A stretch of DNA of 40,663 nucleotides from a virus (Duplodnaviria; Heunggongvirae; Uroviricota; Caudoviricetes), in IMG/VR virus record IMGVR_UViG_2802429245_000006, one strand, 5' to 3'. Shown here one piece after another: positions 10,528 to 34,396 of this stretch. The position numbers were made by a program, and so were the translations under genes. Within the stretch, counting starts at the first letter, position 1, and each line of letters starts with the position of its first letter. The notes beneath the pieces were generated by a model that saw nothing but the letters and a program-made list of their open reading frames with translations, was not told where the DNA came from and made no database searches.

Positions 10528-11112
10528 TATGTCGTATCCGTTGAAGGATTTACGCATATCGGTAATGCCGGCACCCAGCCAGATGCGGGTACCTGACGGG
10601 AGTGAGATCATTGTCCCCTCCCGCTCAGTTCACGGAGCAACACTGTGAGCAGATCTGGTGAAGGATTTTCCAGCGTCATGTTACCGTGACGGAACTCCAC
10701 CTTGCAGGAGCTGGCACTGACAGTAGTCTGGGTGGATAAAGACGGAGTAAGAGCAGCCACCGGTTCTTGCGGCTCATCCGGCGTTATCTCCACAGGTAAT
10801 AATTCAACGCCAGTGTCAGAAGAGGTTGTTACCGGAAGACGCCGCGATATACGCCCTTCGTTTTGCCAAAGTCTGAGCCATTTGAAAATAACATTATCAT
10901 TGACGCCATTTTCTCGAGCAATCTGGGCCACACAAGCACCGGGTTGTGATGCCAGTTCAACCATACGAAGTTTGAATTCATTCGAATACTTTTTACGAGG
11001 TTCTTTTCGCCAGTCCTGTAATTCCATACTTAGATGTCCGTCTGTGTCAGATGGGCGTCTAAGTTACCAATTCTTGTCTAATGGCTACATACGGCGGTCG
11101 GTTTACGCTTAC
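10528..11112 (-). mobile_element. IS66-family remnant (terminal repeat, tnpA, 5' stub of tnpB)
   Basis: Minus-strand terminus GTAAGCGTAAACC ends at 11112. tnpA is followed by a tnpB start (MISLPSGTRIW...) overlapping the tnpA stop in ATGA at 10608-10611. tnpB homology ends near 10528. Confidence 0.65.
10608..11027 (-). CDS. tnpA: IS66-family accessory protein TnpA
   Basis: 139-aa ORF with ...YSNEFKLRMVELASQPGACVAQIARENGVNDNVIFKWLRLWQNEG..., the TnpA pattern recalled from IS66-family elements. Confidence 0.65.
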   Translation of the reverse strand: MELQDWRKEPRKKYSNEFKLRMVELASQPGACVAQIARENGVNDNVIFKWLRLWQNEGRISRRLPVTTSSDTGVELLPVEITPDEPQEPVAALTPSLSTQTTVSASSCKVEFRHGNMTLENPSPDLLTVLLRELSGRGQ

Positions 11113-11865
11113 CTTGTTCTGGAAAAGCTGGAGATGAAATGGTCTCCAGAGCAAATATCAGGATGGTTAAGGCGAACAAAACCACGTCAAAAAACGCTGC
11201 GAATATCACCTGAGACAATTTATAAAACGCTGTACTTTCGTAGCCGTGAAGCGCTACACCACCTGAATATACAGCATCTGCGACGGTCGCATAGCCTTCG
11301 CCATGGCAGGCGTCATACCCGCAAAGGCGAAAGAGGTACGATTAACATAGTGAACGGAACACCAATTCACGAACGTTCCCGAAATATCGATAACAGACGC
11401 TCTCTGGGGCATTGGGAGGGCGATTTAGTCTCAGGTACAAAAAACTCTCATATAGCCACACTTGTAGACCGAAAATCACGTTATACGATCATCCTTAGAC
11501 TCAGGGGCAAAGATTCTGTCTCAGTAAATCAGGCTCTTACCGACAAATTCCTGAGTTTACCGTCAGAACTCAGAAAATCACTGACATGGGACAGAGGAAT
11601 GGAACTGGCCAGACATCTAGAATTTACTGTCAGCACCGGCGTTAAAGTTTACTTCTGCGATCCTCAGAGTCCTTGGCAGCGGGGAACAAATGAGAACACA
11701 AATGGGCTAATTCGGCAGTACTTTCCTAAAAAGACATGTCTTGCCCAATATACTCAACATGAACTAGATCTGGTTGCTGCTCAGCTAAACAACAGACCGA
11801 GAAAGACACTGAAGTTCAAAACACCGAAAGAGATAATTGAAAGGGGTGTTGCATTGACAGATTGA
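11113..11865 (+). pseudogene. insI: IS30 transposase InsI, N-terminally truncated
   Basis: Translation ...LVLEKLEMKWSPEQISGWLRRTKPRQKTLRISPETIYKTLYF...[15 protein letters not shown] is the C-terminal two thirds of the IS30 transposase. The 387-aa ORF-track frame is a chimeric read-through. Confidence 0.85.
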
Positions 11866-11872
11866 ATCTACA
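11113..11872 (+). mobile_element. IS30 3' fragment, 5'-truncated by the IS66-family insertion
   Basis: Sequence from cttgttctggaaaagctggagatgaaatgg to the terminal ...attgacagattgaatctaca matches the IS30 right half and terminal repeat. Confidence 0.85.
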
Positions 11873-12207
11873 GTAGCCTTTTTTAATATTTCATTCTCCA
11901 TTTCAATGCGTTGTAGCTTTTTCCTCAGCTCACGTATTTCGATTTGTTCTGGTGTTATCGGAGAGGCTTTTGGTGTTTTGCCCTGACGCTCATCACGCAG
12001 TTGTTTGACCCATCTTGTCATTGTGGAAAGGCCAACATCCATAGCTTTGGCGGCATCTGCCACCGTGTAGTTCTGGTCAACAACCAGTTGAGCGGATTCG
12101 CGTTTAAACTCTGCGCTGAAATTTCTTTTTTTCATTGGAGCACCTGTGTTGTTCTGAGGTGAGCATATCACCTCTGTTCAGGTGGCCAAATTCAGTGTGC
12201 CACTTCA
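11873..12207 (-). mobile_element. IS911 5' fragment (left IR plus orfA codons 1-88), interrupted by IS30
   Basis: Minus-strand end TGAAGTGGCACACTGAATTTGGCCACCTGAACAGAGGTGATATGCTCACC... and orf[47 protein letters not shown]... stop matching IS911 after ...EILKKAT at the IS30 junction (11872/11873). Confidence 0.85.
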
Positions 12208-12541
12208 CTCGAACCCCAAGACCGGCAATGGAATCGCTTTGTAGAGCTAGAGTTAGTGCCGCATCCTCGTATTGAGCACAGCGAAGCGATTGAGCTAGAC
12301 TATGGCATGACGGGGGGCGCTCTAAAGGTTGAGATTAGAGCGGCCTCGGCAGGCTACTTACTCAGACAATGGAATGTGGATTGTTCTACCAACGCCACAC
12401 TCCAAGATGGTGGAGCTCAATTGTACTTAAAGAACAGAGCAACACTTTATGGAGTTAAAAACATCATGCTAGCTCCAGGGATTGAAAAAGAACTTGGTAA
12501 CTAATGCACAAAAACGAACTTGGCGCAGGGAATAAATTTTG

Positions 12542-15500
12542 ATGAAAATAATCGATAACCTTAACAACCTATTAGGTGACGAGCTTCAACAGACGCTGAC
12601 ACCGAATACAAAGTTAAAGATTGCTGCGTCTTGCTTTTCTATTTATGCGTATGAGGCTCTCAAAAAGGAGTTAGCGAAGATAGACTCACTTGAGTTCATC
12701 TTCACATCACCTACTTTTGTCGCAGATGAAGTTACCGATAAATTCAAAAAAGAAAAACGAGAGTTCTTTATTCCCAAAGCAGGGCGTGAACGCAGCCTTT
12801 ACGGAACTGACTTTGAAATACAGTTAAAGAACAAGCTCACTCAAAAGGCGATCGCCAAAGAGTGTGCAAACTGGATCAGAAAGAAAGCGACATTCAAATC
12901 AAACAAAACTGATTCTCCAATGCAGTCGTTTGTTGTGACGGAAGCACCTAGACAGCAAACAGAGACAATGAGTGCAGTTTTTGCTCCGGTTAGCGGGTTT
13001 ACGGCGGTTGATCTAGGGTATCAGCGAGGAAATGCTATTTCGAATTTTGTGCAAAAAATCGATGAGCCAAATTTCACAGCCCAGTACTTACAGTTATTCG
13101 ACCAAATTTGGAAAGACCCTGCGAAGCTTCAAGATGTTACTAAAACAATTTGCGAGCATATAGAGTCTGTCTACCAGGAAAACTCGCCTGAGAAAGTCTA
13201 TTTCATTATTTTGTATAACATTTTTAATGAGTTCCTTGATGATATTACAGAGGATGTATTACCAAATGATCGAACCGGCTATCAGGACACCTTGATTTGG
13301 AACAAGTTATTCAACTACCAAAAAGATGCCGCGACTGGGATTATCAATAAGTTAGAGACCTATAACGGCTGCATTCTGGCTGATAGTGTTGGTCTTGGTA
13401 AAACATTTACAGCGTTAGCTGTCATCAAGTATTACGAGCTCAGGAACAAGTCCGTACTTCTACTGTGTCCGAAAAAATTGGCAGATAACTGGCTCAACTT
13501 TAATCGAAACTTAAAGACAAATATCTTTGCTAAAGACCGTTTTAGTTACGATGTTTTGTGTCACACAGATTTGAGCCGAATCTCTGGCGAATCCTTCGGT
13601 ACTCCGTTGAATAGAATAAACTGGGGTAACTATGACTTGGTCGTCATTGATGAGTCGCATAACTTTAGAAATAACGATGCAGTGAAAGATCGAGAAACCC
13701 GATATCAGAAACTGATGAATAAAGTTATTCGGGCTGGCGTGAAAACCAAAGTCCTGATGCTATCAGCGACACCAGTGAATAATAGATTTACTGACCTGAG
13801 AAACCAGCTTGCGTTAGCTTATGAAGGCGAGTCGAGCAATCTCACAAAGCATCTTAAAACCACAAAAAGCGTAGAACAGATCTTCAACCAAGCACAAGCC
13901 GCATTTAACGCTTGGTCCAAACTCGACCCAGAGACGCGAACAGCTAAAGCCATACTCGATGCCTTAGATTTCGACTTTTTTGAACTGCTTGATAGCGTCA
14001 CTATCGCTCGCTCACGAAAGCACATCACAACATTCTACGACACAACAGATATTGGCCATTTCCCTGAACGTAACAAGCCAATCTCGTTTCATTGTCCGCT
14101 TACTACTCGTTCGGATGTAGTTAGCCTGAATGAGATCTTTGAACAGCTTAAGCTACTCAAACTATCTGTTTATGCGCCAGTGAGTTATATCCTCCCGAGT
14201 AGATTGAAGAAATATGAGGAGATGTATGACACGGAAGTTGAAGGCGGAAAAGGTAAGTTAAAGCAAAGCGACCGTGAAAAAAGTTTGGTTGCATTGATGA
14301 CAACGAACCTCCTAAAGCGTCTTGAGAGCTCCGTATACTCGTTCAGAAGCACCTTGCAATCTCTCCATGATAACCATGTTCGTGTTCTAGGTATTATCGA
14401 CGAATTCTATAAGCGAGACGGGCAAACCGAAGTGAGCAGTCTCGTTGAAGCGCTAGAGTCTATTGAAGCAGATGAAGACGATATGCCTTCTTATCACGAT
14501 ATGGAAATCGGTAACAAAATCAAAATTAAGCTAATGGATATGGATCTTCCATCCTGGCAGCAGGATTTAGATGGCGATTTGGAGCTGATCAAAGGGTTAC
14601 TAGATTCTGTTAGCAAAATTAAGCCAGAAGAAGATGCTAAGTTGCAGCATCTGAAATCACATATTGCTGCAAAAATAAATAATCCGATAAATCCTGGAAA
14701 CCGGAAAATCATCGTGTTCACGGCGTTTGCTGACACCGCTCAGTATCTGTACGAGCAGTTGTCACCTGTGATGTTAAGCGAGCATAGAATCCATACTGCG
14801 ATGATCACTGGTGGTGCCAGTTTACCTAAGACCACCTTAAAAACCGGACGAAAAGGTTACGACACACAAGAAGTGCTCACCTTGTTTTCTCCAGTTTCCA
14901 AATCGAAAGCCAGTGTATTACCTGACGAACCCGCTGAAATCGATTTGTTGATTGCTACAGACTGTATCTCTGAAGGGCAGAACTTACAGGATTGCGATTA
15001 CTTAATTAACTTTGATATTCATTGGAATCCAGTTCGGATTGTTCAGCGCTTTGGGCGTGTTGACCGTATTGGCTCGGCGAATAAATGTATTCAGTTAGTT
15101 AACTACTGGCCTGATATATCGCTGGATGAGTACATCAACTTAAAAGAACGTGTTGAAAGTCGAATGACGATTGTTGACGTAACAGCGACCGGTGATGACA
15201 ACGTTCTAAGTTGTCAAGCGAATGATGTGTCGTACCGTAAAGAGCAGTTAAAGAAACTACAAGAAGAAGTCATCGAGCTTGAAGATTTAAAAACGGGGGT
15301 TTCTATCACCGATCTAGGTCTAAACGAATTTCGAATGGACCTGCTAAATCTAATGAAACTCTACGGCGAACCAAGAAATGCACCAAGCGGCATGCATGCG
15401 GTGGTTGAGGCTAAGCCAGAATTAGGGTTATTGCCTGGCGTGGTGTTTGCGCTGAAAAACGTTAATAACAGTATCGATAGAGATCTGCAAAACAGGCTCC

Positions 15501-15874
15501 ACCCTTATTACCTTGTCTATGTATCGAATGAAGGGGACATCGTCGCTAATCATTTTGAGGTAAAGAGACTATTAGATTTAATCCGAAGTAGCTGTAAAGG
15601 TCAAACAGCACCGCTCAGTGAGATTTGTGCTTTATTTAATCGCTTAACGCAAGACGGTCGAGATATGCAGTGTTACTCTCACCTTCTAACAGATGCCATA
15701 AAAAGCATGGTTGAAGTTAAGGAAGAAAAAGATATTGATAGTTTGTTCAATGGTGGCGCTACCTCAGCTTTAGTGAATACATTTGCCGGGCTTGATGACT
15801 TTGAATTGCTGGCATTTATTGTGATCCAGCAAAAGCACCTGATGGAAAATAGTGCTCAGGATGAGGTTAGCTAG
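12542..15874 (+). CDS. SNF2-family helicase/ATPase with an unassigned ~250-aa N-terminal domain
   Basis: Motif I ADSVGLGKT, motif II VVIDESHNFRN, motif III LMLSATPVNN, C-terminal helicase motifs ...TDCISEGQNLQ... and QRFGRVDRIGS; 1110 aa from the ATG at 12542. Low-GC coding sequence. Confidence 0.85.
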   Translation: MKIIDNLNNLLGDELQQTLTPNTKLKIAASCFSIYAYEALKKELAKIDSLEFIFTSPTFVADEVTDKFKKEKREFFIPKAGRERSLYGTDFEIQLKNKLTQKAIAKECANWIRKKATFKSNKTDSPMQSFVVTEAPRQQTETMSAVFAPVSGFTAVDLGYQRGNAISNFVQKIDEPNFTAQYLQLFDQIWKDPAKLQDVTKTICEHIESVYQENSPEKVYFIILYNIFNEFLDDITEDVLPNDRTGYQDTLIWNKLFNYQKDAATGIINKLETYNGCILADSVGLGKTFTALAVIKYYELRNKSVLLLCPKKLADNWLNFNRNLKTNIFAKDRFSYDVLCHTDLSRISGESFGTPLNRINWGNYDLVVIDESHNFRNNDAVKDRETRYQKLMNKVIRAGVKTKVLMLSATPVNNRFTDLRNQLALAYEGESSNLTKHLKTTKSVEQIFNQAQAAFNAWSKLDPETRTAKAILDALDFDFFELLDSVTIARSRKHITTFYDTTDIGHFPERNKPISFHCPLTTRSDVVSLNEIFEQLKLLKLSVYAPVSYILPSRLKKYEEMYDTEVEGGKGKLKQSDREKSLVALMTTNLLKRLESSVYSFRSTLQSLHDNHVRVLGIIDEFYKRDGQTEVSSLVEALESIEADEDDMPSYHDMEIGNKIKIKLMDMDLPSWQQDLDGDLELIKGLLDSVSKIKPEEDAKLQHLKSHIAAKINNPINPGNRKIIVFTAFADTAQYLYEQLSPVMLSEHRIHTAMITGGASLPKTTLKTGRKGYDTQEVLTLFSPVSKSKASVLPDEPAEIDLLIATDCISEGQNLQDCDYLINFDIHWNPVRIVQRFGRVDRIGSANKCIQLVNYWPDISLDEYINLKERVESRMTIVDVTATGDDNVLSCQANDVSYRKEQLKKLQEEVIELEDLKTGVSITDLGLNEFRMDLLNLMKLYGEPRNAPSGMHAVVEAKPELGLLPGVVFALKNVNNSIDRDLQNRLHPYYLVYVSNEGDIVANHFEVKRLLDLIRSSCKGQTAPLSEICALFNRLTQDGRDMQCYSHLLTDAIKSMVEVKEEKDIDSLFNGGATSALVNTFAGLDDFELLAFIVIQQKHLMENSAQDEVS

Positions 15875-15877: not shown

Positions 15878-16564
15878 ATGAACTCACCTTGGATATTTCC
15901 TGACAACGCAAAGTTCGGTCGAGTCGTGCCTAAGAACAAAATATATGAGCACAGCGCGGCAAGCACTGGGTTGAAGTCACTTTTTGTAGAGCAAGTAGAG
16001 CAAATCCTTTGGGCTTACAAGCTATCGCCTAGCACGCTGAATATTCCTCAAACCAGTGAGGTCAGTGAAATACAGGTTTTCAGTGTGAAGCTTAAAGGTG
16101 ACTCGATAGACGACAGCGTACTAAAAGCCATTGATTTGGCGATACCTTTTCCCATTCTATTTGAGGTATGGGAAGCTCGCGGTGAGCAAGGCCACTACGT
16201 TGCTTGCTATAAGCGTAAGGCAGAAAATGATCAGTCAAAATGGTTTTGTAGCCGCTATTTACGTTCAGAAACCTTCTATTCAAGTGATTCATTAGCAGTG
16301 ACTTCAGAAGTTTTGGGTTTGCCTACCGCTATCGATATGGCGGAGCTGTATCAAAAGCTTCTTACTCGCTTGTTACCCATACCCCAACGAGCCGCTGAGA
16401 GTATAGAAGAGGCTATTCAACGCCTGGAGGCAATTCAGGCATTGGAAAAGCAAATCTCGCAATATAAGAAGAAGGTTCATGCCGAGAAACAGTTTAACCG
16501 CAAGGTTGAGCTCAATAAGCAGTTAAAGAATTTAAGGTGCGAGCTTCAAGAGTTACTCGCATAA
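15878..16564 (+). CDS. Small accessory protein (DUF4391-like, with C-terminal coiled coil)
   Basis: 228-aa ORF starting 3 nt after the helicase stop. Family assignment is from recalled gene neighbourhoods, not a verified match. Confidence 0.55.
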   Translation: MNSPWIFPDNAKFGRVVPKNKIYEHSAASTGLKSLFVEQVEQILWAYKLSPSTLNIPQTSEVSEIQVFSVKLKGDSIDDSVLKAIDLAIPFPILFEVWEARGEQGHYVACYKRKAENDQSKWFCSRYLRSETFYSSDSLAVTSEVLGLPTAIDMAELYQKLLTRLLPIPQRAAESIEEAIQRLEAIQALEKQISQYKKKVHAEKQFNRKVELNKQLKNLRCELQELLA

Positions 16565-16637: not shown

Positions 16638-18629
16638 ATGGACAAATTAAAGATGCACAGCCCCGACATGACGCAGCAAAACATAGAGAAAATTCAGGCG
16701 TTGTTTCCGAACTGTGTGACGGAATCAAGAGGAGCTAACGGAGAGCTAAAGTTAGTCATTGATTTTGACCAACTTAAACAAGAGCTATCAAATTCAATCG
16801 TTGAAGGCCCGCAAGAGCGCTATCAGCTGAACTGGCCCGGTAAGCGAGAAGCACTACTAACAGCGAATGCACCTATTGCCAAAACCTTAAGACCTTGTCG
16901 AGAAGAAAGTGTCAATTTTGACACCACTAAAAACCTCTTTATTGAAGGCGATAACCTTGATGCATTGAAACTGCTACAAGAGGCATATATTGGAAAAGTC
17001 AAATTAATATATATTGATCCACCTTATAACACCGGTAATGACTTTATATATGAAGACGATTTTTCTGAAAATGCAGAGAGCTTCTTAATAAAGTCCAACC
17101 AGAAAGATAGTGATGGTAATAAATTAGTAGCGAATACAGAAGCTAATGGCAGATTTCACTCGGATTGGCTAAGCATGATGTACTCACGTTTGAAATTGGC
17201 TCGTAATCTACTAAGTGATGAAGGAGCTGTGATTATCTCAATTGATGAGAATGAACACAGCAACATAGTGAAATTAGGTGGTCTTATATTTGGCGATGAA
17301 AACTTTTGTGGCGAAATAGTCTGGAAAAATAGTAGTAAAAATGACCAGAAATATGTCTCAATACAACACGAATACCTTGTTATATTTGTTAAATCAAAGC
17401 AAAACAATAAGGGGGATTGGGTTGAGAAAAAAGAAGGCCTAGACCAAATTTATCAAGCGTTTGATGGTTTTAAACGCAAACATGGCAATGACTGGGATGC
17501 AATACATGCAGATGCGCTTGAATGGTATAGGAGTTTCCCTGCATCCAATCCAATTTCATCAAGTAAACATTATAGCTGGATGGACGAGCGCGGTGTATAT
17601 TTCCCAGATAATATTTCAGGCCCAAACGATGGTCAGTATGTTTATGACGTCATCCATCCTGTGACTAACAAACCATGCAAAATGCCTTCTACAGGATGGC
17701 GCTATCCAGAATCAACGTTAATTGAAAGAATAGCTGATAATCGAGTGCACTTTGGAAAGGATCATAAAACTGTTCCAAACAATAAAACGTATCTAAAAGA
17801 TACTGAATATCAGAGCCTTACGAGCATGCGCTTCGTTGATGGTCGCAGCGCTTCTAAAAGGCTGCAAACCCTTTTCGGTGATAAAGTTTTTACAAACCCT
17901 AAAGATGAAATTTTATTAAAAGATTTATTTAAAGCAATTGGTGTATCAGAAAAAGATATAGTCCTTGATTTCTTTGCAGGTTCTGCATCGACGATACATG
18001 CTGTTTTTGAACTCAATAAAGAAACTGGCAGTAATTGTTCGTGTATCCTAGTGCAGCTTCCAGAAGATCTGAAAGAAATGTTAAAAACGGCTAAAGGTTC
18101 TGCTAAGAAAGTCACGCAGAACGCTATCAATTATTTGAAAAATAAAGGCCTACCACAAACAATTAGTGAAATTGCAAAAGAACGTATTCGACTTTCGGGG
18201 CAAAAGTATACCGAAGATTTCGATATTGGATTCCGAGTTCTCAAAGTAGATACCTCCAACATGGCGGATGTGTACTACTCTCCAGATCAAGTTACTCAGG
18301 GTTCGTTAGACTTATTGGTAGATAATATTAAAGCAGACCGCACTGATGAAGATTTACTTTTCCAGGTTCTACTTGATTGGGGCGTCGATTTAACCTTGCC
18401 AATTAGAAAAGAAACGATTCAAGGTAAATCGGTATTCTTTGTCGATGATGATGCACTGGTGGCCTGTTTTGATCTGCGCATAAATGAAGCTTTGATTAAA
18501 GAGTTAGCCACAAAAGAGCCACTTCGCGTAGTGTTCCGTGATGACGGCTTTGAGTCTGATGCAGTAAAAATCAATGCTGAGCAGATTTTCAAGCAAGTGT
18601 CGCCACATACTGAAGTTAAAGCGATATAA
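16638..18629 (+). CDS. mod: Type III Mod-like N6-adenine DNA methyltransferase (beta class)
   Basis: Catalytic motif [12 protein letters not shown] precedes AdoMet motif [12 protein letters not shown], the order typical of Type III Mod. ATG at 16638 with AAGGTG upstream; the ORF-track frame begins 15 codons earlier. Confidence 0.85.
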
Positions 18630-18638: not shown

Positions 18639-18728
18639 ATGACAAATTTTACCGGATTAAAATTTGCACACAGCCTTGTCGCAGACAAGGTGTGCCCGAA
18701 GTGTTGCGTACATGGAGGTGCGCAATGA
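18639..18728 (+). CDS. Possible 29-aa leader peptide (uORF) coupled to res
   Basis: ATG at 18639 is 4 nt after AGGAGG; translation [29 protein letters not shown]; its TGA overlaps the res ATG (ATGA at 18725-18728). Confidence 0.3.
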
Positions 18729-21700
18729 AACTTAAGTTCAAAGTCCAACCTTATCAAACTGTTGCCGTAGAGTCGGTTGTTGACTGCTTTGCGGGGCAAC
18801 CTAACACATCCGGCGTTACCTACCGAATCGACCCTGGCGTTGCCAAGGATAAGTTTGGCAATGCTGGTTGGGATATGAGCGACCAAGACGGTTTTAAAAA
18901 TGCAGAACTCGCGATCACTGAATCGCAGTTATTGCAAAATATTCATGGTGTTCAAAGTAGACAGAACCTCCCTGTTTCAGAAGCGTTAGTCAGCAATGCT
19001 AGCGCTAAGATTAATCTCGATGTTGAAATGGAAACCGGTACTGGTAAGACATATTGCTACATCAAAACCATCTTTGAGATGAATAAGCGCTATGGCTGGA
19101 GCAAATTTATTATCGTTGTGCCTAGCATCGCCATTCGTGAAGGTGTTTACAAGTCGCTGCAAATCACAGGTGAGCATTTTGCTCAGAATTACGACGGTAA
19201 AAAGGCCCGGTTCTTTATCTATAACTCGAAACAATTGCACCAGTTAGAGAGTTTTTCTTCTGACAGTGGCATCAATGTGATGGTCATTAATATTCAAGCC
19301 TTTAATGCTTCAGGAAAAGACAATAGACGTATTTATGAAGAGTTGGATGACTTTCAGTCTAGGCGTCCTATTGATGTTATTAGTGCAAACCGTCCAATCC
19401 TGATTTTGGATGAGCCACAAAAGATGGAAGGCAAGAAGACATTAGATGCCTTAGCCAAATTCAAACCACTGATGGTACTTCGATATTCGGCCACGCATAA
19501 GACAACACATAATAAAGTGCATCGCCTGGATGCGCTTGACGCTTATAACAATAAGCTGGTTAAGAAAATTGCCGTTCGTGGTATTTCAGTAAAAGGCTTG
19601 GCGGGAACGACAGCCTATCTATATTTGGAATCCATCGAGATCTCGAAAAAAATGCCAGTGGCTCGCATTGAGATCGAAGTTAAACAACAAAATGGTATTA
19701 AACGCATACCCAAGAAGGTTACTAAGGGCGATAATCTTTTTGATCTTAGCAATGGTCTGGACCAGTACCGTGACTTTGTGGTTACTGATGTCAACGCGAT
19801 TAACGACACGGTTGAATTCAAAAATGGCCATGTTTTAACCACGGGCGATGCGACGGGAGACGTGACCGAAGAGACCATTCGCCGAATACAGATCCGCGAG
19901 ACAATTAAAGCGCACCTTGAAAAAGAAAAAACACTTTTTAACCAGGGTATAAAGGTTCTCTCTCTCTTTTTTATTGACGAAGTCGCAAAGTATAGGGACT
20001 ACTCTCAAGCCGATGAAAAAGGTGATTATGCTCGCGTTTTTGAAGAAGAGTACTCCTTGCTTGTACAGGAATATCTTGATGAGTTGACTCTTTTACCGAG
20101 TGAGCAGACTGATGCCTATAAAGCCTATCTATCGGCCATTGAAGGCTCCAGAACGCATAATGGTTACTTCTCAATTGATAAGAAATCAAATCGTCTTCAG
20201 AACCCCGGCTTTAAAGTCCGTGGTGAAGATGCCGGGCTATCAGACGATGTAGATGCTTATGATTTGATTCTAAAAGATAAGGAAAAGTTACTTTCGTTTG
20301 AAGAGCCTACTCGGTTTATCTTTTCACATTCGGCCTTGCGCGAGGGGTGGGATAATCCAAACGTATTTGTCATGTGTATGTTAAAACACAGCGACAACAC
20401 TATCTCTCGTCGTCAAGAAGTTGGGCGTGGTTTACGTCTGGCCGTCAATAAACATGGTGACAGACAAGACCATCCGGCAACTGTGCATGAAATTAATGTT
20501 TTGTCGGTGATTGCAAGTGAAAGCTATAAAGACTTTGTCACGAATCTGCAAAAAGAGATCAGCGAGTCTCTCTCAGCGAGACCTAGAAAAGCAGATGAAG
20601 CTTATTTTACGGGTAAGACAATTACAACAGCTGATGGACCTGTAGAAGTAACACCTGTCATGGCTAAGCAAATTTATAAGTATTTGCTTAAAAATGATTA
20701 TACCAATGACGTTGACGATTCAATTGCGCCATCATTCCACCAGGCTAAGGCTAGTGGACAGTTAGCGCCAATGCCTGCTGAGTTAGAGCCTTACCGCGAG
20801 CAAATATTGACCCTGATTGACGGTGTTTATAGTGAAGCGCAATTGCCAGGTGTTGGTGATGATCGTAAACCTAAAAACAATCCGTTGAATGCTAATTTTG
20901 ATAAGAAAGAGTTTCAGGAGCTTTGGCACAAAATCAATCGCAAAGCGGTTTATAAGGTTGATTTTGATTCGTCTGAGTTGATTAAAAATTGTATTCGGGT
21001 ACTCAATAAAGAGCTTAAGGTAACGCCTCTTCAGTACACGATTCAAGATGGTGTTCAATTGGATGGCATTACCGACGAACAACTCAAAGCTGGACAAAGT
21101 TTCAAGGTGAAAAACACTGAGACTGAAACTCATCAATCGAGCATTCATTCTGCTGTTCGTTATGACTTGGTTGGTAAGTTGGCTGAAAATTGTGTGCTGA
21201 CTCGCAAAACAGTCGCCGAAATACTGATGGGTATAGAACCTGTAGTATTTGCACAATTTAAGCAGAACCCTGAGCATTTTCTCGCTGAGGCTTCACGCCT
21301 TGTGAAAGAGCAAAAGGCATCTGTGATCATCGAGAAGCTATCATATGATCCAACGAACGAATCTTATGATGTTGATATATTCACGGCAGAGCAAAAAATC
21401 ACTGATATGACAAAAGCCGTTAGTGGCGTTAATAAGCATATTTATGATTATGTTGTCGTTGATTCACAAGGCATTGAACGGGACTTTGTTACCGAGCTTG
21501 ATACAAGCAAAGAAGTCGTGGTTTATGCAAAACTGCCTCGTGGTTTTCTGATACCGACGCCTGTTGGCGACTACAACCCTGATTGGGCGATTTCTTTCAA
21601 AGAAGGAAGTGTTAAACACATTTACTTTATTGCAGAGACTAAAGGAACGATGTCTTCGCTTGAATTGCGTGGCATAGAAGATCGCAAGATTGAATGTGCT

Positions 21701-21802
21701 AGGAAATTCTTTGAAAAAATTAATGCAGAGATAACGAGTGAAAACGTCAAATATGATGTTGTAACGAGTTACTCGAAATTAATGGAAGTCATAAGCGGTT
21801 AG
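18725..21802 (+). CDS. res: Type III Res-like restriction subunit (helicase plus C-terminal PD-(D/E)xK nuclease)
   Basis: Walker [11 protein letters not shown], motif [13 protein letters not shown]-like RYSATHK, motif [12 protein letters not shown]-terminal ...NPDW...FIAETKG nuclease-like motif. ATG at 18725 with GGAGG upstream. Confidence 0.85.
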
Positions 21803-22400: not shown

Positions 22401-23213
22401 GTGATGACAATGTGTCGGGTACTGGATGTCGCCCGGGCCGGGTTCTACGCGTGGCTGCATAACCCGGTCTCGGCACGTGATAAAGATAATCAGCGTCTGC
22501 TGACGCTTATCCGTGACTCCTATTCACTGAGCGGAGGCGTATACGGTTACCGGCGGGTTCATGGCGACCTGAACGAAATCGGGGAAACCTGCGGTAAAAA
22601 CCGGGTGGGCCGTATTATGCAACTGAACCGGATTAAAGCCGTGCGCGGCTATAAAGCGCCGCGTCGTATCGCTGGCAGACCTTCAGTGGTTGCCCCTAAT
22701 CGCGTGCAGCGGCAGTTTACTGTTGTCCGGGCCAATCAGGTCTGGGTCACCGACATTACTTATTTCCGCACCTGGCAGGGCTGGCTGTATCTGGCGGTGG
22801 TTATCGATCTCTTCGCCCGTAACGTGGTGGGCTGGTCGATGAAGCCCACTCTCTCACGCGAACTGGCGTTGGATGCACTGATGATGGCGGTCTGGCGACG
22901 TAAACCCGACGGCGAGGTCATCGTGCACTCAGACCAGGGAAGCCAGTACGGCAGTGACGACTGGCAGCGCTTCTGCCGGGCTAATAACCTGGTCCCGAGC
23001 ATGAGCCGGCGTGGCAACTGCTGGGATAATGCGGTGGCCGAATCGTTCTTCAGTTCACTGAAAAAAGAGCGCATCAGGAAGAGAATATACAAAACCCGGG
23101 ATCTAGCCCGGGCGGATATCTTCGATTACATTGAAGTGTTCTACAACCGGGCCCGGCGCCACAGTCACCTCGGCGGCGTCAGTCCGGAGGCCTTTGAACA
23201 GGCCTCGTCGTGA
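22401..23213 (+). CDS. IS3-family transposase OrfB (DDE integrase core), expressed by -1 frameshift from orfA
   Basis: The frame is open from about 22320; DDE-region motifs ...WVTDITYF...HSDQGSQY...CWDNAVAESFF... The annotated start is a GTG. Confidence 0.8.
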   Translation: MMTMCRVLDVARAGFYAWLHNPVSARDKDNQRLLTLIRDSYSLSGGVYGYRRVHGDLNEIGETCGKNRVGRIMQLNRIKAVRGYKAPRRIAGRPSVVAPNRVQRQFTVVRANQVWVTDITYFRTWQGWLYLAVVIDLFARNVVGWSMKPTLSRELALDALMMAVWRRKPDGEVIVHSDQGSQYGSDDWQRFCRANNLVPSMSRRGNCWDNAVAESFFSSLKKERIRKRIYKTRDLARADIFDYIEVFYNRARRHSHLGGVSPEAFEQASS

Positions 23214-23971
23214 GGACAGAATTTGTCTACGGGCGTGGGGTCAGTCCAGTGTATGTCTATTACCCAACTGTGAGAGATACTGAAATCACAACATTTGAAG
23301 AAACTCTGGATAACCTCCTACAACGCCGACGAGCATTGGCCAGAGATATGCTCTGCGCTACTCCCGATTTGAACTGTGCGGATTTTGAGACCATTTTGAA
23401 GGGAGCCTAACCGATATGAGCGGCAATACTACCAGTTGCCAAACCTGAAATAACACTTAGCTGTGATGATTCGCTATTACCTATCGATAGCTTCGGAAAA
23501 CATAAATTAAAAATGCCCAGAGGAGTACTATTATCGTTAGCATTACCCGAACGTCGTATTAACGGTTATTTATTGGTAAGTGCTACGTTCCATGGCAAGA
23601 GTTCATCAACAGGTTGGAAGGCCATTCCGGCAAAACTCTCAGTATATGGCGCAGATACCATTCAGACAGCAGGTCCCGCTCAGCCCGTACAGTAGAGCGC
23701 CGTTCACTACCGTAATCGCTACCGAAGAACACATTGATTGCCCCTCAATAATCCTGCTGTTAACATCAAAATTGTTGGTCGGGCTCGATTTATTTAATTG
23801 TGTAAACAGGGTCTCTCAGAGAAAGGCCCTTATGCATCACCTGACGTTAAAAGTCACTACACCCAAGATGACGTTCAAAGTGTCATAGTCCCCTGCGCTG
23901 AGGACAAAGCTACGCATTAACGACAAATCCACGCGATAACTTACGATAGTTCGGGCATAAGCCCCCGTAAT

Positions 23972-24535
23972 TCAGTTATGTCGTGGTCGGCCCCGGTTAC
24001 TTTTTTCGGGAAGCCTGCTACGGCCCAGAATAATACCGTGTTCTTTCTGATCCTGTTTAGCCAGGTAGCTGAGGGCGTAACGTAAGTCGTCTACCGCAGA
24101 CTTATCACTATAGTGAATCACGTGATCGATACACACAGGGTATTTGTCTTTAGCCCGGCAAAGGTGAAAATAACCATCCCCTTCCGTGATCCGCCTCCAG
24201 ATATCTCCCAGTTGCCTGGATATCTGATAAGAGTTCTTGTGACGTTGTCCATCCAGGTAGCCGATAAAATGAATATGAAGCCCTTTGTTTGGTGTATATT
24301 CCATAACCCAGTAATATCCCACCAACATCGTCTGGGTTTCGCTAAGTAAGCGGTATATTTCCATACACATACTGTGCTTACAGGAATGCCCGAAACTGGG
24401 CGTGTCTTTCCTGTAGGCAAAATCAATTCTGAAAGGTAACAGTTTAGAAAAACGTTGAAACAACCCCTCCATGTGTTCATTCACATCTTTCAGAATCGCG
24501 AAATTCATTTCGTAATTGGGATTGGCATTATACAT
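23972..24535 (-). CDS. yfjJ: YfjJ/YagK-family protein (inovirus Gp2-like)
   Basis: 187-aa ORF with ATG at 24535 and AAGGAC upstream; sequence and position next to a yfjI-like gene match the CP4-57 layout. Confidence 0.7.
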   Translation of the reverse strand: MYNANPNYEMNFAILKDVNEHMEGLFQRFSKLLPFRIDFAYRKDTPSFGHSCKHSMCMEIYRLLSETQTMLVGYYWVMEYTPNKGLHIHFIGYLDGQRHKNSYQISRQLGDIWRRITEGDGYFHLCRAKDKYPVCIDHVIHYSDKSAVDDLRYALSYLAKQDQKEHGIILGRSRLPEKSNRGRPRHN

Positions 24536-25411
24536 TTTATAGTCCTTACTTTATAAAACTCACAGGAAGAGGAAATTATGTAAATGCTGAGGGTACAGAA
24601 ACGTCGTACCACGGCATTAATAAACGAGGTAACCAGCAGTACAGACAACCTGATAAAACTGTTTGGTATTACCTCATTGCTGTAATGAGGTAATATATTC
24701 AGAATACAGTGAAACTCTCTTAAACTGAGGACCAGTACAAATTACAATGGTAAAAACATACCCCATAGAATTAACTTTAAGGAAACACCATTCAATCACT
24801 TAAAGGAAGTAATCTGACATTCACAAAAGTCAGTATCGGGTAGCTACAGGCAACACCGCTATTGATACTCCCGCACCATTAAGTAAAAACATCAACTCAG
24901 CTTAAGGCCTCTACAGATATTTAATCTCCACCATAAACAATAACGGAGCTATAACGTACGAACCAGACACACATTCAATGATTAACTTTCTCAATATTAC
25001 ACTATGAGTAAGTGACATAATTTAACATATAACTAAACAACATACACTACTCACTGATGTATATACATCACATACCTACAGACTAAGCAGAATGGTCAGC
25101 ATAAAGAGGAGCGACAATACGATAAAAAGAGATAAAACAATATAACAGATCACATAACTCCCACTAATAATACTAATTAACCTAAATTATTTATTGAACA
25201 CGAGAACAATGAGGGAACCTCCTCATCTAGGACTAAAGCCAGCAATATCCTGAGCAACACTCTATCCAATAGTAAATAATGGTTATACCAGTTATATTTG
25301 CTGACTGACCTGTACCAGAGTTCTGTAATACAACAACGCTGACATGGTAAAGGCATTAGTCTCCTCCGCAAGTAGCAGAGGAGACTATATGTTACTCAAC
25401 GATTAAGTCGT

Positions 25412-26845
25412 TCAGAGGTCAAAGTTAGGTGCGACATACCACGTTTTTCCCTCAATAACCGGTACAACTCTGTTTTGTTCATACAGTAAATCCAGTAACC
25501 AATTGATTTTATCCTTTTTCCGGAAACGGTTCGGACCACGCTGTAAAATGTCATTTTTTTTCATACAGGGGATCCCCTTCTCAATGCAATAGCTTTTTAT
25601 CCAGTTAAAAAGTTCAAGCTCCTCTGGAATGAGTCGCACAGGTACGGTCAGGGCAGAGTTTTCAAACGTTAACGGACTGGATAACCGAACATACTCATTA
25701 CCATACCATATTGCTAATTCTCTCGCCATTTCAGCAGTGTAGGGGGAAATGTCACCTTCCTCACCGCTAAAATGGTGAATAAGTCCTGCCAGTCTTGCCA
25801 TATACTCTGCATTTTTAGCAGCATATTCTCTGAAGTCTCTTAAAGGCCCCAGAACCGACATCTTCGATTCCACATCGTTGTAATAGTCCGTCCAGATTCT
25901 GGCTGCCTGAGGAGAAAAGTGAAGGCAACGCCGCTCTCCCCTCATCGCCAGGCTTTCATCAATGAGTTCATTTATCCTCTGTTCAAACAAATCCTGATAC
26001 TGTGATGAATAATTATCTCCGGTTATTATCCTTGTCCCCTGCGTTGATGTTGGTTGACACATCAAAAACCTTGCATGATGTCCCGACGTTTTCACAAGTT
26101 CTTTTTTTCGTGTACAAAAACCTTTGTGGTAAACATCAGGCTGAACCATCACCGATATCGTCAGTCTTGGTTCCTTCAAAAAAATTCCGGGAGATGATTT
26201 CCTGTCGATGAAAAGAGAACCACCATCCCACAAAGAGTTAAGTATTCCCAGTTTACTCATTGCCCGGCTGTCAAAAATTATCCCACCTTCACTGGATACA
26301 AGAGCAAAAGAGCGATTGCTATCAGAATAATATTTTAACATTCCCTCTATCGTTGTATCATTAAAAATTGTTCGATGTATCTGTGGTGGAACAGGACACT
26401 TATTCAGATGTGTTTTAAGCTCTGATTCTGTTGTCTTATAATCTTTACCGGCACGAATCTCTTTATGAAGTTTTGACTCCAGTGCTTTTTGTTTTTGCTC
26501 CCATATTTCCTTTTCTGTACTGTAATTCTCAACCAGTTTCGCGTATTCTTCCGCCAGGGCTTCATCCCTGAGATAAAATGCTTTCATAAACACTTTATCC
26601 ACGGTCGTTTTCCTTTCACCAGAATCAGCCAGAATCATAGAGTAAATATTAGAGGACCCACGTAAATTTCCTGGCCTGCACACATCAACCTGATTCTGAC
26701 AGGCAATTGACATCGCTGTTAATGCTGCAGTTATCGCCATAGCTATAGGTGTCTGTGTATTCTTTTGAGTTTCAATTATTGCATTTCTCGCCAGCGGTGG
26801 CATTGCATATATCGGACAAGGATTTTCTGGTGCAAGTAAGCACAT
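25412..26845 (-). CDS. yfjI: YfjI-like protein (DUF3987 family)
   Basis: Long ORF; ATG at 26845 with GAGG upstream is preferred over the ORF-track start at 26863. Position between alpA and yfjJ matches CP4-57. Confidence 0.7.
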   Translation of the reverse strand: MCLLAPENPCPIYAMPPLARNAIIETQKNTQTPIAMAITAALTAMSIACQNQVDVCRPGNLRGSSNIYSMILADSGERKTTVDKVFMKAFYLRDEALAEEYAKLVENYSTEKEIWEQKQKALESKLHKEIRAGKDYKTTESELKTHLNKCPVPPQIHRTIFNDTTIEGMLKYYSDSNRSFALVSSEGGIIFDSRAMSKLGILNSLWDGGSLFIDRKSSPGIFLKEPRLTISVMVQPDVYHKGFCTRKKELVKTSGHHARFLMCQPTSTQGTRIITGDNYSSQYQDLFEQRINELIDESLAMRGERRCLHFSPQAARIWTDYYNDVESKMSVLGPLRDFREYAAKNAEYMARLAGLIHHFSGEEGDISPYTAEMARELAIWYGNEYVRLSSPLTFENSALTVPVRLIPEELELFNWIKSYCIEKGIPCMKKNDILQRGPNRFRKKDKINWLLDLLYEQNRVVPVIEGKTWYVAPNFDL

Positions 26846-27420
26846 AAATGCCTCTCTTTTCATTAATGGGTTAGTAAAGTAGCAGCAACTCCCGCTATAA
26901 TAGCGAAAATAGCTGCTGTTCAGACCTAATGTTCTGAAAAATACAGAATATCTGTAGATCTGATGTTTAATAACCGATAAGGTTAATTCAGTTCAGACTG
27001 TGTTATTTACCACGAAATATCATTCATGTTTCTCATTCTTAACACCTCCTAAAATTATTTCACTAACACCTTCCCCCCGGTCTTTTTCCTTTCTCAGGAA
27101 TCAGCCAGAACCATAGTGTAAATATTAACGGGCCCACGTAAATTTCCGGAGCTGCACACGTCAATCTGATTCTGACAGGCAATTGACATCGCTGTTAATA
27201 ATGATGTTGTAGTCATAGCCAGAGATGCTTTTTCATTTTGTTGAGTTTCAATTATTGCATTTCCAGTCATTGATGGTTGCGCATATACTGGATACGGAGT
27301 ATCCGGTTTGATGTAAGACATAAATATTCCCTTTTTTCGTAATGACTTTCGGTTATAGCAGCTATTTCCGCTACAATAGCAACAATAGCTGCTATACAGA
27401 CTGGATATACTGAAAATACA
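26603..27420. repeat. Tandem imperfect direct duplication (~350 bp, roughly 75-80% identical) of the yfjI promoter-proximal and 5' coding region
   Basis: 26603-26940 aligns with 27076-27420 by eye (for example gacaggcaattgacatcgctgttaat and gagtttcaattattgcattt occur in both). Confidence 0.75.
27094..27321 (-). pseudogene. Truncated duplicate of the yfjI 5' end
   Basis: 75-aa ORF MSYIKPDTPYPVYAQPSMTGNAIIETQQNEKASLAMTTTSLLTAMSIACQNQIDVC... parallels the N-terminus of the full gene and ends inside the duplicated block. Confidence 0.6.
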
Positions 27421-27426
27421 AACAGT

Positions 27427-27654
27427 TCATCTGGTCTGTATCCAGCAGAGAAGGTCACTTAACAACCATCCGCAAGATTTCTTTCCGATAGACTTACGTG
27501 GTGGAAATTTTCCCTCCCGTTCAAGTTTCCACGCTTGCGTACGAGAAACTGACGTGATCTCATATCGTTCCTTTTCACGTACCAGTCTGTCGCATTCAAT
27601 CCCATAAGCTTTCAAAATGACCAGACGCTGTTCATCTGTTAATGGAAGCCACAT
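27427..27654 (-). CDS. alpA: AlpA-family phage transcriptional regulator (HTH)
   Basis: ATG at 27652-27654 with AGGAGGG upstream; ...ERYEITSVSRTQAWKLEREGKFPPRKSIGKKSCGWLLSDLLCWIQ resembles AlpA-type HTH proteins. Confidence 0.75.
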   Translation of the reverse strand: MWLPLTDEQRLVILKAYGIECDRLVREKERYEITSVSRTQAWKLEREGKFPPRKSIGKKSCGWLLSDLLCWIQTR

Positions 27655-28346
27655 ACTACCCTCCTGATATATCAATACTTTTTATTTCCGGCATGAGCAT
27701 GAAATGACTAAGTTTCCCGGATAAACAATGAGTGAAAGTCACTGTCATTCATCCAGCCAACACCTTGCAAATAAAATGTAATACTATGATTTTTATAGGT
27801 CAAAATACTGAATTACAATGTTAAAATGGCTTTTAATAGAAAAAATAAAGACATATAGAGCCAAATAAAAATAAACTACGACAAATAAAAACAAAAGATT
27901 AATATTAAAAATCCATTATGACGATTTTTATTGACTAAAATCAGGTTGGGATATATAAATAAATCCATGTAAAATTCAAACAAGGCATGGAGGAGTCGCA
28001 GGAAGGTGAAATATTTCCATCTAATTTGTGATAATCATCACAAAAATAAGCTACAACAAGCGGAGGAAAAGACAATCTGTTGCTGAACAGACAGAAGCAG
28101 GCTACGAATGATCGGAAAATGAAGCAAATACGCTTATACAGAAGACGCAGGGGTAACTGACGGAGACAATCACAATCAGGAGAAAATGATCGTAAATAAT
28201 GTATAAAATCTCAGGATATAAACAAATGTACACAAGCTATCCACGTAATCTGCGGCTGGCTCAGGATTAACGTTTCATTTCAGTGGACGACATCGATTCT
28301 GTCTGACAGTGGGCCAATATGTGGCAAGCAGAAAACTTCTGACATC

Positions 28347-29978
28347 ATGGTAACTCGGACAATGCAACAAAAGTATGATCGTGTTTTATCTGGCGAATCC
28401 CATCCATTCCCTGGCATATACGAGGCGGTTTCCGAACAACTCCTTTTGCTCATCTTTAAGGCTCGTCAGCTATATCAGAATCCAGAATATCGCCCCTGGT
28501 TTGAAGAACAGCACAGAGTTCTCTCTGCATTACGTGCTAATACAGAGCTCTTGAGAATATTTAGAGAACAAAGAAACGCGGAAGAACCAGAGCTTATTAT
28601 TAAAGAATCTACATTACCCCTACTCACTAATTCTAATCTTACAGATGCGCTTAATATTATGTGCCATTTATACAATGGTTTTGATGAAGGAAATATCAGT
28701 CTGAAAACCTGGGGGGCGATGCAAGAGGTACAGACAACATCAACCTTTATCAGCCCGGGACCGAGAACCTGGAAAACACCTGAACTGGCAAAGTTTGTAG
28801 GAGATGATTTATTTAATATTCTGACTGAATGTAAAGCCTGGAGTTCACCAATTCCAGCAGAAACCCGACAGGGCTATTGCCATCAGGATCTGTCTGTTGC
28901 ACACTCCTGCACCTCAGAGTTACTGGCACACCTGAATCAATACCATGAAATTGATGAATCAGCAATACTTGCCAGAGTTATTGGTATGACGGTTAACGGA
29001 TTCTACAAGAAAAATAATACAGACCTCCCAGAATGGCTATCCCCCTTTAAAGAGGAACATAAAATATTCAGAGATTGTCTGGAGCAAAAGACCGAGGATG
29101 TAATCAGACTGAAAGAACAACTGTTGAAAACAGGACGTTCAGAATTCGTGAATAATTTGTGTCGGGTCGCCAACTGGTATGAAATTAAGTCAATATACGA
29201 TGAATATGTCCGTCTTTATGCCAATGAAATCATTGGTTGGTTCAACAAAACCATGGAATATTTTAAACCAACAGATTTTATCCGATATACATGGAAATTC
29301 GCAACAGTTACTCCAGGTAAAGAGACAGAAACCAAGCATACAACTGCATGGGAAAAGGATTATTGCCAGATAACTATACAACGTGATGAACTTCTGAGAT
29401 TGATTCACACGAATACCCTTCAGGATGCAGTAATTTATCTTTGCCATTGTCTGCAGAAGAAATACAAGAAATCATCCCAAAATGAGATAGAGTTTCCAGG
29501 AATAAAACCTCCGGCATCAGAGAGTGAAATTAATATAACAGATAGTTTTGAATTTTATTCTCTCCTGGAGCTCAGTAAAGATAATGAGAGACGGCTGGAA
29601 ACATTTCAAAAATGGTATGAAAAAAATAAAGTTTTGTTAGAAAGTCATAAACAAAAACGAACAGAGAAGATTGACGTTGCCGTACGACTTGTAGGGCTGA
29701 AAGCCTATGATCTGCATGAAGGGATTCCGGATAGTCCAAAACGAAAAGTTAAAGATGGCATAAATGAAGACATCAAAGCCGATACCAGTTTACGCCTGCC
29801 AAAGACAAATATAAGTGATACGTCGCTAAACCGTTATCGCCGCACTGTTAAGGAGATTATCAATAACGAAATCGACGCATTCCTGTTGGAACAGAAGAAA
29901 AAAAATAAAAGATTTCCCTACAGTGAAGATAGAGATGTGATTCGACCTTTATGGGGAAAATGCCTGACCGGGCAGTAG
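28347..29978 (+). CDS. Hypothetical protein, 543 aa, low GC, function unknown
   Basis: Long clean ORF in AT-rich DNA, divergent from alpA; no motifs recognised. A second possible ATG lies at 28362. Confidence 0.6.
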   Translation: MVTRTMQQKYDRVLSGESHPFPGIYEAVSEQLLLLIFKARQLYQNPEYRPWFEEQHRVLSALRANTELLRIFREQRNAEEPELIIKESTLPLLTNSNLTDALNIMCHLYNGFDEGNISLKTWGAMQEVQTTSTFISPGPRTWKTPELAKFVGDDLFNILTECKAWSSPIPAETRQGYCHQDLSVAHSCTSELLAHLNQYHEIDESAILARVIGMTVNGFYKKNNTDLPEWLSPFKEEHKIFRDCLEQKTEDVIRLKEQLLKTGRSEFVNNLCRVANWYEIKSIYDEYVRLYANEIIGWFNKTMEYFKPTDFIRYTWKFATVTPGKETETKHTTAWEKDYCQITIQRDELLRLIHTNTLQDAVIYLCHCLQKKYKKSSQNEIEFPGIKPPASESEINITDSFEFYSLLELSKDNERRLETFQKWYEKNKVLLESHKQKRTEKIDVAVRLVGLKAYDLHEGIPDSPKRKVKDGINEDIKADTSLRLPKTNISDTSLNRYRRTVKEIINNEIDAFLLEQKKKNKRFPYSEDRDVIRPLWGKCLTGQ

Positions 29979-30064
29979 ATCACTGAGGGGATAACAGCCC
30001 GGTTATCCCCTGTTTGTTCTGCTTCAGGTTGCCAGAGCTCTAGGAACACGAGGCAATCGGCAAA

Positions 30065-32350: not shown

Positions 32351-32358
32351 TATCTATC

Positions 32359-34034: not shown

Positions 34035-34045
34035 TGTATCCCCCT

Positions 34046-34387: not shown

Positions 34388-34396
34388 TGCTCCCCC

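Follow-up and report, generated by a model that had tools for sequence, protein, structure and literature searches.

A degenerate PLD-fold domain at the N-terminus of an SNF2 ATPase encoded in a four-gene Type III restriction-modification operon

The first 200 residues of an SNF2-family ATPase that is encoded together with a DUF4391 protein and a Type III Mod/Res pair are modelled as a domain of the phospholipase D (PLD) type, and the identity of this domain as a degenerate HKD nuclease domain is well supported. Fusions of PLD domains with helicases are known nuclease effectors of phage defence; in the protein described here the nuclease half appears to have been switched off. This presumably dead half is nearly unchanged across many bacterial phyla, always in the company of DUF4391 and a complete Type III pair. 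The new element, as far as the sequences indicate, is that one particular and very widespread SNF2 clade, linked to Type III restriction, carries an HKD domain that has been inactivated. In itself, the identification is sound and of a rather ordinary kind. Recognizing the domain as a pseudo-nuclease explains why it escapes Pfam and would assign the cutting of DNA to Res. It raises the question of what the SNF2 protein and DUF4391 contribute to Type III restriction.

Genetic setting and gene map

The window, that is, the whole stretch of 40,663 nucleotides that was analysed (IMG/VR virus record IMGVR_UViG_2802429245_000006), contains a low-GC island at 10-22 kb, with a GC content of 0.40-0.44 as compared to approximately 0.55 in the flanks. 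The island is embedded in a chromosomal region of E. coli, with a CP4-like island carrying Ag43/Cah on its left and a P4-like integrative element on its right. The genes for the SNF2 protein, the DUF4391 protein, Mod, and Res, four in number and all on the + strand, are flanked by two IS clusters. These genes, and the gene remnant that precedes them, are the following:

12202..12504, + strand: 3' remnant of a gene for a WYL/BrxR-type regulator, severed by the IS cluster at 10608-12171
12542..15874, + strand: gene for the SNF2-family ATPase, 1110 aa plus stop codon (ORF, start codon and ribosome-binding site, Pfam, PADLOC)
15878..16564, + strand: DUF4391 gene, 228 aa (Pfam PF14335, E 6.5e-55)
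16638..18629, + strand: gene for the Type III methyltransferase Mod, with a DPPY motif (PADLOC MTase_III, E 1.6e-219; Pfam N6_N4_Mtase)
18725..21802, + strand: gene for the Type III Res subunit, with an SF2 ATPase and a C-terminal PD-(D/E)xK endonuclease (NPDW...AETKG)

The last two genes, which are adjacent and co-oriented, have the properties of a Type III restriction-modification system: Mod is of the beta class (N6A) and has a target-recognition domain, and Res combines an SF2 ATPase with a PD-(D/E)xK nuclease. The ORF of Mod opens at GTG 16593, and comparison with a RefSeq homologue suggests that ATG 16638 is the probable start codon. That of Res opens at 18692, and its alignment to the family profiles begins at residue 12; Res was matched by PADLOC REase_III (1163 bits), NCBIfam PRK15483 (E 7e-120), and Pfam RE_endonuc (E 1.5e-33). 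The DUF4391 gene starts only 3 nt past the SNF2 stop codon. In its product, an alpha/beta part at the N-terminus is followed by a coiled coil at the C-terminus (EKQFNRKVELN); a DUF4391 profile found no relative among the PDB sequences, only coiled-coil noise.

A regulator remnant identical to the one in the window is annotated in RefSeq as 'WYL domain-containing protein, missing N-terminus'. Elsewhere, namely on other E. coli plasmids and at the loci L008 and L011, the position of the remnant is taken by complete BrxR or WYL genes; one E. coli plasmid with an intact cassette, BrxR included, is NZ_CP101514.1. The genes upstream of the cassette differ between loci and include WYL/BrxR genes, genes for small HTH proteins, and others.

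Start, layout, and extent of the N-terminal region of the SNF2 protein

The SNF2 ORF opens at TTG 12539, and an AGGGAA ribosome-binding site is located 10 nt upstream of ATG 12542. A RefSeq CDS of 1110 aa, annotated in an E. coli plasmid with 99% identity, begins at the same codon. ATG 12542 is therefore taken as the true start codon, so that residues 1-263 correspond to the interval 12542-13330. The protein is composed of a predicted dead PLD domain, a helical linker, the SNF2 core, and an unassigned C-terminal region. The following features were located along the gene:

12542..13141, + strand: degenerate PLD/HKD-fold domain, predicted to be catalytically dead (residues 1-200)
12710..12886, + strand: clade-specific basic element, a loop followed by a long helix (residues 57-115)
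12914..12943, + strand: former HxK strand, SPMQSFVVTE (residues 125-134; alignments, entropy)
12983..13048, + strand: counterpart of GSSNFTxAGL..NxELN, APVSGFTAVDLGYQRGNAISNF (residues 148-169; alignments, entropy)
13142..13303, + strand: conserved helical linker to the SNF2 N-lobe (residues 201-254; model, conservation)
13304..15181, + strand: SNF2 ATPase core with motifs I, II, III, and VI intact (residues 255-880)
15182..15871, + strand: C-terminal region with no match to a Pfam family (residues 881-1110)

The SNF2/ResIII core begins at approximately residue 255, as judged by Pfam (SNF2-rel_dom, ResIII, Helicase_C). With motifs I (Walker A, GLGKT 284-288), II (DExH, here DESH 370), III (SATP 408), and VI (QRFGRVDRIG 835) present and with SNF2-rel_dom and Helicase_C scoring above threshold, the protein is a member of the SNF2 family. 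The preliminary description had placed about 250 residues in front of motif I, which is close enough: there are some 255 residues ahead of the helicase core and 283 ahead of motif I itself.

When used alone, the N-terminal region had no significant match in Pfam, NCBIfam, or PADLOC. Its 33-sequence profile retrieved nothing from the PDB sequences at E<=10, and phmmer with the full-length SNF2 protein found nothing in them before approximately residue 250. The matches to ZW10_C2 (E 0.15), SecA_SW, and PADLOC 'Specificity_I' (E 0.0017) were rejected as noise, being far below threshold and inconsistent between members. In the protein databases, the region has 2764 homologues at E<=1e-3, the best 120 being 64-78% identical, and 2048 clusters at 50% identity were counted. 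Conservation of this extent greatly exceeds what chance would produce, in agreement with the earlier remark that the region is well conserved. Many of the database entries are 255-320 aa long, which would suggest that the domain also exists as a stand-alone protein. This idea was abandoned: the one such entry that was examined, P0017 from a complete genome, has been cut by an IS3 element, and the others are mostly from short contigs.

Fold of residues 1-200

Structure prediction was based on an alignment of 33 diverse homologues with 35-78% identity; a model made by AlphaFold on 23 close homologues (65-78% identity) had a pLDDT of 39 and was not used. With the 33 sequences, the N-terminal region was modelled at a pLDDT of 77 and a pTM of 0.69, with 122 residues above 90, and low confidence was confined to residues 61-93 and 211-261. 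In a comparison of this model with known structures, the highest score was obtained for SauUSI (13.8), followed by the DUF1669 domain of FAM83B (12.1), NgoAVII (12.1), vaccinia F13 (11.9), NucT (11.7), BfiI (11.1), Zucchini (11.0), Nuc (10.8), and TrmB/TrmBL2 (~10), while the first unrelated fold appeared at 3.7. Foldseek searches of the PDB and of viral models had the same outcome. Because the two comparisons agree, residues 1-200 are assigned the PLD fold; as modelled, they form a PLD alpha/beta sandwich domain and belong to this superfamily at the level of the fold.

The interpretation in the preliminary description, which held that the region is not a canonical PLD nuclease, is partly supported. 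The catalytic signature is indeed absent, but the structure model and the hhalign alignment described below assign the PLD fold to the domain.

Homology to HKD-intact SNF2 proteins and loss of the active site

When plasmids were searched by tblastn with the full SNF2 protein, Nostoc, Halalkalicoccus, and Haloferax volcanii pHV4 were found to encode distant SNF2 relatives (25-27% identity). The N-termini of these relatives contain HxK...GSSN...NxELN and exceed the threshold of Pfam PLDc_2, with 43-45 bits. Using hhalign, the 33-sequence profile was aligned to the three HKD-intact N-termini, a reference profile of three sequences only, at a probability of 97.0% (E 8.4e-11) over 209 columns. The PADLOC model PDLC01075 ('HKD+Snf2') matches the full protein with an E-value of 8.4e-122, residues 1-1096 aligning with positions 1-947 of a profile of 948; the N-terminal region on its own is not matched by this model. 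Homology to the HKD-SNF2 lineage thus extends over the full length and includes the PLD N-terminus, the linker, and the SNF2 core.

The signature of active PLD enzymes, HxK(x)4D(x)6G(S/G)xN together with NxE, could not be found in the domain. According to the hhalign and MAFFT alignments, the catalytic residues have been replaced as follows: H by M127, K by S129, N of GSxN by G152, and E of NxE by I166. The register of the former HxK is shifted by one between hhalign (Q128, F130) and MAFFT (M127, S129); H and K are absent from positions 127-130 in all of the 33 diverse members. Structural residues of the segment, namely F153, T154, L158, G159, G163, and N164, have been retained. The strand at 125-134 is the least conserved segment, with an entropy of 2.23 bits, and the residues at the former catalytic positions vary between members (M/I/L, S/Q/P/G, G/D/E, and V/A/I). 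That no HxK signature can be seen, as was noted before, is correct: residues 1-261 contain a single histidine (H206) and no HxK, and the HxK strings in 172 homologues of the whole region are only at scattered, non-homologous positions. From these alignments, the domain does not appear to possess the functional nuclease active site of the HKD-SNF2 lineage.

As a consequence of the loss of the HKD residues, the domain is missed by the Pfam family models. PLDc_2 (PF13091, gathering threshold 27 bits) does not match the SNF2 protein of the window and hits one of the 33 members below threshold (17.5 bits, E 0.0039), over the HKD half of the model.

Where conservation now lies

The N-terminal domain is under strong purifying selection. 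In a comparison of 80 genomes from many phyla, identity was 64-77% for the N-terminal region and 66-82% for the ATPase part. Judging from the alignments, selection has shifted from the former active site to a new surface. Conservation within the domain is highest in the helix at 90-115 (1.18 bits), in which E92, L95, and W111 are invariant. This helix is part of a basic element (residues 57-115) that is longer than its equivalent in the HKD relatives and consists of a loop with the motif REFxIPK..RE.SLYG, followed by the helix FEIxLxNxLTQxAIAxECAxW. The loop has a pLDDT of 41-50 in the model (residues 61-93), and the helix is modelled at 90-115. The pI of the element is 9.3-9.7, whereas the remainder of the domain is acidic (pI 4.4-5.1). 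Part of the loop at 57-89 is deleted in the Paraburkholderia homologue, so that this loop is not essential everywhere.

The linker at 201-254, which the HKD relatives also have, carries the motifs DVT, YxENxPE, LYNIF, and LPN..TG..IW (1.3-1.5 bits) and is modelled with helices at 200-213 and 216-236. The stretch from 200 to 261 is likewise among the best-conserved parts of the region.

Distribution of the four-gene cassette

A pattern scan of a collection with one genome per species identified at least 595 relatives among the 600 matches listed. In the 80 of these at least 595 loci that were examined in detail, SNF2, DUF4391, Mod, and Res follow one another in this order wherever there is sufficient downstream DNA. 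The same four genes in the same order are present on plasmids of Listeria (51% identity), B. cereus (44%), and Paraburkholderia (40%); the B. cereus cassette is located directly downstream of drmA and a DUF1998 gene. The HKD-intact relatives adjoin genes for Eco57I/MmeI/PglX-like methylases, and neither DUF4391 nor Type III genes are located in their vicinity. The SNF2 protein belongs to a very widespread four-gene variant of Type III restriction-modification.

Two further observations concern the variation within the cassette. DUF4391 reaches 34-49% identity in comparisons that give 64-77% for the N-terminal domain. The target-recognition domain of Mod has been swapped between otherwise identical cassettes, and the N-terminal domain is 100% identical in these.

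The literature on DUF4391, on SNF2 proteins with Type III systems, and on HKD with Snf2 yielded no account of the four-gene cassette. The searchable literature contained no genuine mention of DUF4391, the one recent mention being a slip for DUF7941. The protein is annotated only as 'helicase-related protein', and in PADLOC the family is present only as a CRISPR type III accessory.

Proposed role of the domain

The explanation that we favour, and consider reasonably probable, is that the pseudo-nuclease has been retained as a non-catalytic scaffold, with cleavage delegated to Res, in the four-gene Type III operon. The ancestor would have been an HKD-SNF2 nuclease-translocase that acted beside large PglX/Eco57I-like methylases, and in the present lineage the protein is locked into an operon of SNF2, DUF4391, Type III Mod, and Type III Res. 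In this operon, Res, with its own intact PD-(D/E)xK motif, would do the cutting, and the PLD module would no longer cut DNA; with cleavage supplied by Res, the HKD residues would have become dispensable. The domain would then have been kept for the non-catalytic properties of the PLD fold. PLD domains with a single HKD motif, such as those of Nuc, BfiI, and SauUSI, work as homodimers formed across the active-site face, and pseudo-PLD domains such as FAM83 DUF1669 are docking modules. As single-HKD PLD domains are obligate dimers, the most likely role of the domain would be that of a platform that pairs two SNF2 motors. Docking of DNA, or of a partner protein (DUF4391 or Mod2Res, for example), may in addition occur through the basic loop and helix at 57-115 and would couple the ATP-driven translocase to the Type III enzyme.

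A more far-reaching proposal, to which we assign a small chance, is that the dead PLD domain and the basic helix form a coupling device that dimerises SNF2 and DUF4391 or docks them onto Mod2Res, in a distinct four-component class of Type III systems. ATP-driven translocation or looping would then replace or supplement the passive one-dimensional diffusion of the classical Type III enzymes. If this were the case, the rules of site orientation could be changed or evasion by phages could be overcome, and the SNF2 protein with its dead PLD domain, together with DUF4391, would be essential parts of a new restriction-modification subtype and not hitch-hikers.

Among the alternatives to the scaffold, a pure protein-protein adaptor that mainly binds DUF4391 or Mod2Res, with neither dimerisation nor DNA contact, is unlikely but retains some credibility. 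The degree of identity of DUF4391 (34-49%), set against that of the N-terminal domain (64-77%), is a poor fit to a tightly co-evolving interface, and the conserved element is so strongly basic that it would suit nucleic acid at least equally well.

The preliminary description had suggested a module for the sensing of DNA modification. In a broader form, the pocket of the former active site would bind modified DNA or a small-molecule or nucleotide ligand and gate the SNF2 ATPase, which would resemble the sugar-binding PLD-like domain of TrmB. The pocket region, however, is the least conserved part of the domain, with conservation concentrated elsewhere, and the specificity of a Type III system resides in the target-recognition domain of Mod, which is swapped while the N-terminal domain stays identical. 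Moreover, no similarity to known readers of modified bases was found by Pfam, by the PDB profile search, or by the structure comparison. A sensing function has thus been weakened to the point of being improbable.

A persisting nuclease or phosphodiesterase activity of the domain, by way of non-canonical catalytic residues, is very improbable. The PLD fold has been kept, as has the GFT..LG..GN segment that forms the pocket, and the protein of B. cereus, a distant member, retains a lysine at the K position, but none of the four replacements of catalytic residues could serve as a nucleophile or general acid. The replacements vary between members and the former HxK strand is the least conserved one; the sole histidine of residues 1-261 lies outside the core of the fold, and Res already provides a nuclease. 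Equally little weight is given to an evolutionary relic needed only for the folding or stability of the SNF2 protein: the catalytic residues have gone and constraint on the active-site strand has been relaxed, but across phyla the conservation of the domain nearly equals that of the ATPase core, it has a clade-specific insertion rich in invariant residues (E92, L95, N97, C108, W111) that would not be expected of a decaying relic, no full-length member of the family was seen without it, and the short entry examined is an IS-truncated pseudogene.

Relation to known systems

The protein has its overall design, with an N-terminal PLD fold, a helical linker, and an SNF2 ATPase, in common with the HKD-SNF2 proteins, with which it also shares the N-terminal [IV]DN motif and the LYxxF motif of the linker. 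The HKD-SNF2 proteins have kept HxK, GSSN, and NxE and pass the PLDc_2 threshold, whereas in the present clade all three motifs have been lost and the PLDc_2 threshold is not reached. The partners differ as well: PglX/Eco57I-type methylases accompany the HKD-SNF2 proteins, as opposed to DUF4391 and Type III Mod and Res for the clade described here. CDD cd09178 (PLDc_N_Snf2_like) also belongs with the HKD-SNF2 proteins. The combination of PLD and SNF2 had been recognized before as 'HKD+Snf2', C3a139 (Shah et al. 2018; PMC6546367). An effector composed of an HKD-endoDNase and Swi2/Snf2 has been described in Type-2 BREX-related systems, and the methylase context of the HKD-intact relatives resembles that of these effectors (PMC12839542).

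SauUSI, an ATP-dependent Type IV restriction enzyme (PDB 7CLG), gave the best structural match at a sequence identity of 10-12%. Its active HKD site arises through dimerisation. It combines a non-SNF2 helicase with a target-recognition domain of its own, whereas the domain studied here is predicted to be dead and operates beside separate Mod and Res genes. The pseudo-PLD domains of FAM83 (DUF1669; 5LZK, 4URJ) and of TrmB/TrmBL2 are also 10-12% identical; their inactivations are unrelated to the present one and independent of it. These domains are eukaryotic or archaeal and are not fused to a helicase, and those of TrmB/TrmBL2 are associated with sugar or DNA.

The best NCBIfam match of the ATPase part is DrmD of DISARM class 1 (E 1.6e-44), and both DrmD and ArmA of ARMADA resemble the present protein in being SNF2 ATPases that are encoded with an (adenine) methylase in a defence operon. 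An identity as DrmD was rejected, as the scores were 152 bits against a cut-off of 610 and 100 against 950 (NCBIfam NF038317/NF038318). DrmA, DrmB, and DrmC are absent from the window and the cassette. Membership of DISARM or ARMADA was dismissed on the basis of the scores and of gene content, DUF4391 and a Type III Res being parts of neither system. ArmA has been described as RapA-like (PMC13463889), and BrxHII, another RapA-like SNF2 protein, as having a Tudor N-terminus (PMC12839542). By these descriptions, neither of the two carries a PLD domain, unlike the SNF2 protein of the window.

As in the classical Type III enzymes EcoP15I and StyLTI, Mod and Res have intact methylase, ATPase, and PD-(D/E)xK motifs. 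The classical systems consist of mod and res only, whereas here the genes for the SNF2 protein and DUF4391 are also conserved, upstream of mod and res, at 595 or more genomic places.

Comparison of the cassette genes with plasmid counterparts

The SNF2, DUF4391 and Res proteins of the window are 97-100 % identical to their counterparts on E. coli plasmids, whereas near-identity of the Type III Mod protein to its E. coli plasmid counterpart is confined to both ends. When Mod of the window (16638-18629) was compared with that of L001 (13439-15361), one of the loci from other genomes and plasmids (L001-L088), the central part (approximately residues 240-560) was only 20-25 % identical. This divergence looks like a swapped target-recognition domain, and the two Mod proteins would thus probably differ in recognition sequence.

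Two further parts of the cassette proteins were delimited:

15182-15871 (+), C-terminal region of SNF2, residues 881-1110 (~230 aa), following the helicase C-lobe
15878-16564 (+), DUF4391 gene, encoding an N-terminal α/β part and a C-terminal coiled coil

A family assignment was sought for SNF2 residues 881-1110 and none was obtained. These C-terminal residues are conserved across the family and could form a second module that binds a partner or DNA. DUF4391 has no sequence relative in the PDB and is effectively missing from the literature; its mention in one preprint is a slip for DUF7941. The coiled coil of DUF4391 carries a conserved EKQFNRKVELN motif.

Variant and broken copies of the SNF2 gene

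A SNF2 homologue with 40 % identity is encoded on a Paraburkholderia plasmid (L087, 8001-11246). Most of the REFxIPK..RE.SLYG loop (residues ~60-85 of the window protein) is missing from it and the helix that follows is retained, so that at least one lineage can dispense with the loop. Database proteins of ~260-320 aa could be taken for the N-terminal domain as a stand-alone protein, a reading that fails in at least one case, in Alicycliphilus denitrificans:

L088 8001-8789, remnant of the SNF2 gene truncated by an IS3 element

The SNF2 match in L003 (Oceanimonas) contains a break, which suggests a frameshift in this gene.

Additional genes in and around the cassettes

In 21 of 60 loci, among them L002-L004, L009, L020, L022, L024 and L040, Mod and Res are separated by additional genes; DUF4391 and Mod are separated in this way in 16 of 68, among them L007, L008, L014, L025, L029 and L048. 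Among the products of these genes, a 552-aa Schlafen AlbA_2 + HATPase_c_4 protein recurs in 13 loci; a 900-aa UvrD-like helicase, an AAA_21 ATPase and an OLD-family AAA_15 + TOPRIM nuclease are likewise recurrent. On the B. cereus plasmid pMRY14-0105_1 (L086, 3143-16876), drmA and a DUF1998 (drmB-like) gene are followed immediately, on the same strand, by the four-gene cassette. Parts of DISARM may have been combined with the cassette into a hybrid here, or the genes may simply be tightly clustered in a defence island.

Flanks of the cassette in the window

The gene usually ahead of the cassette encodes a WYL/BrxR-type regulator. In the window it has been disrupted by stacked IS fragments, and a C-terminal remnant is left:

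10608-12171, IS cluster: IS66-family orfA (piece), IS30, IS3-family orfA (piece)
12202-12504, WYL/BrxR-type regulator remnant, C-terminal part only

As the regulator is cut by this pile-up, the operon may be deregulated or transcribed from an IS promoter. On the right flank (23000-40663), low-GC stretches match a P4-like integrative element common to many E. coli chromosomes, which carries genes for an integrase, YfjI and a primase, inovirus Gp2-like genes, and a ClpP-like prohead protease/capsid fusion.
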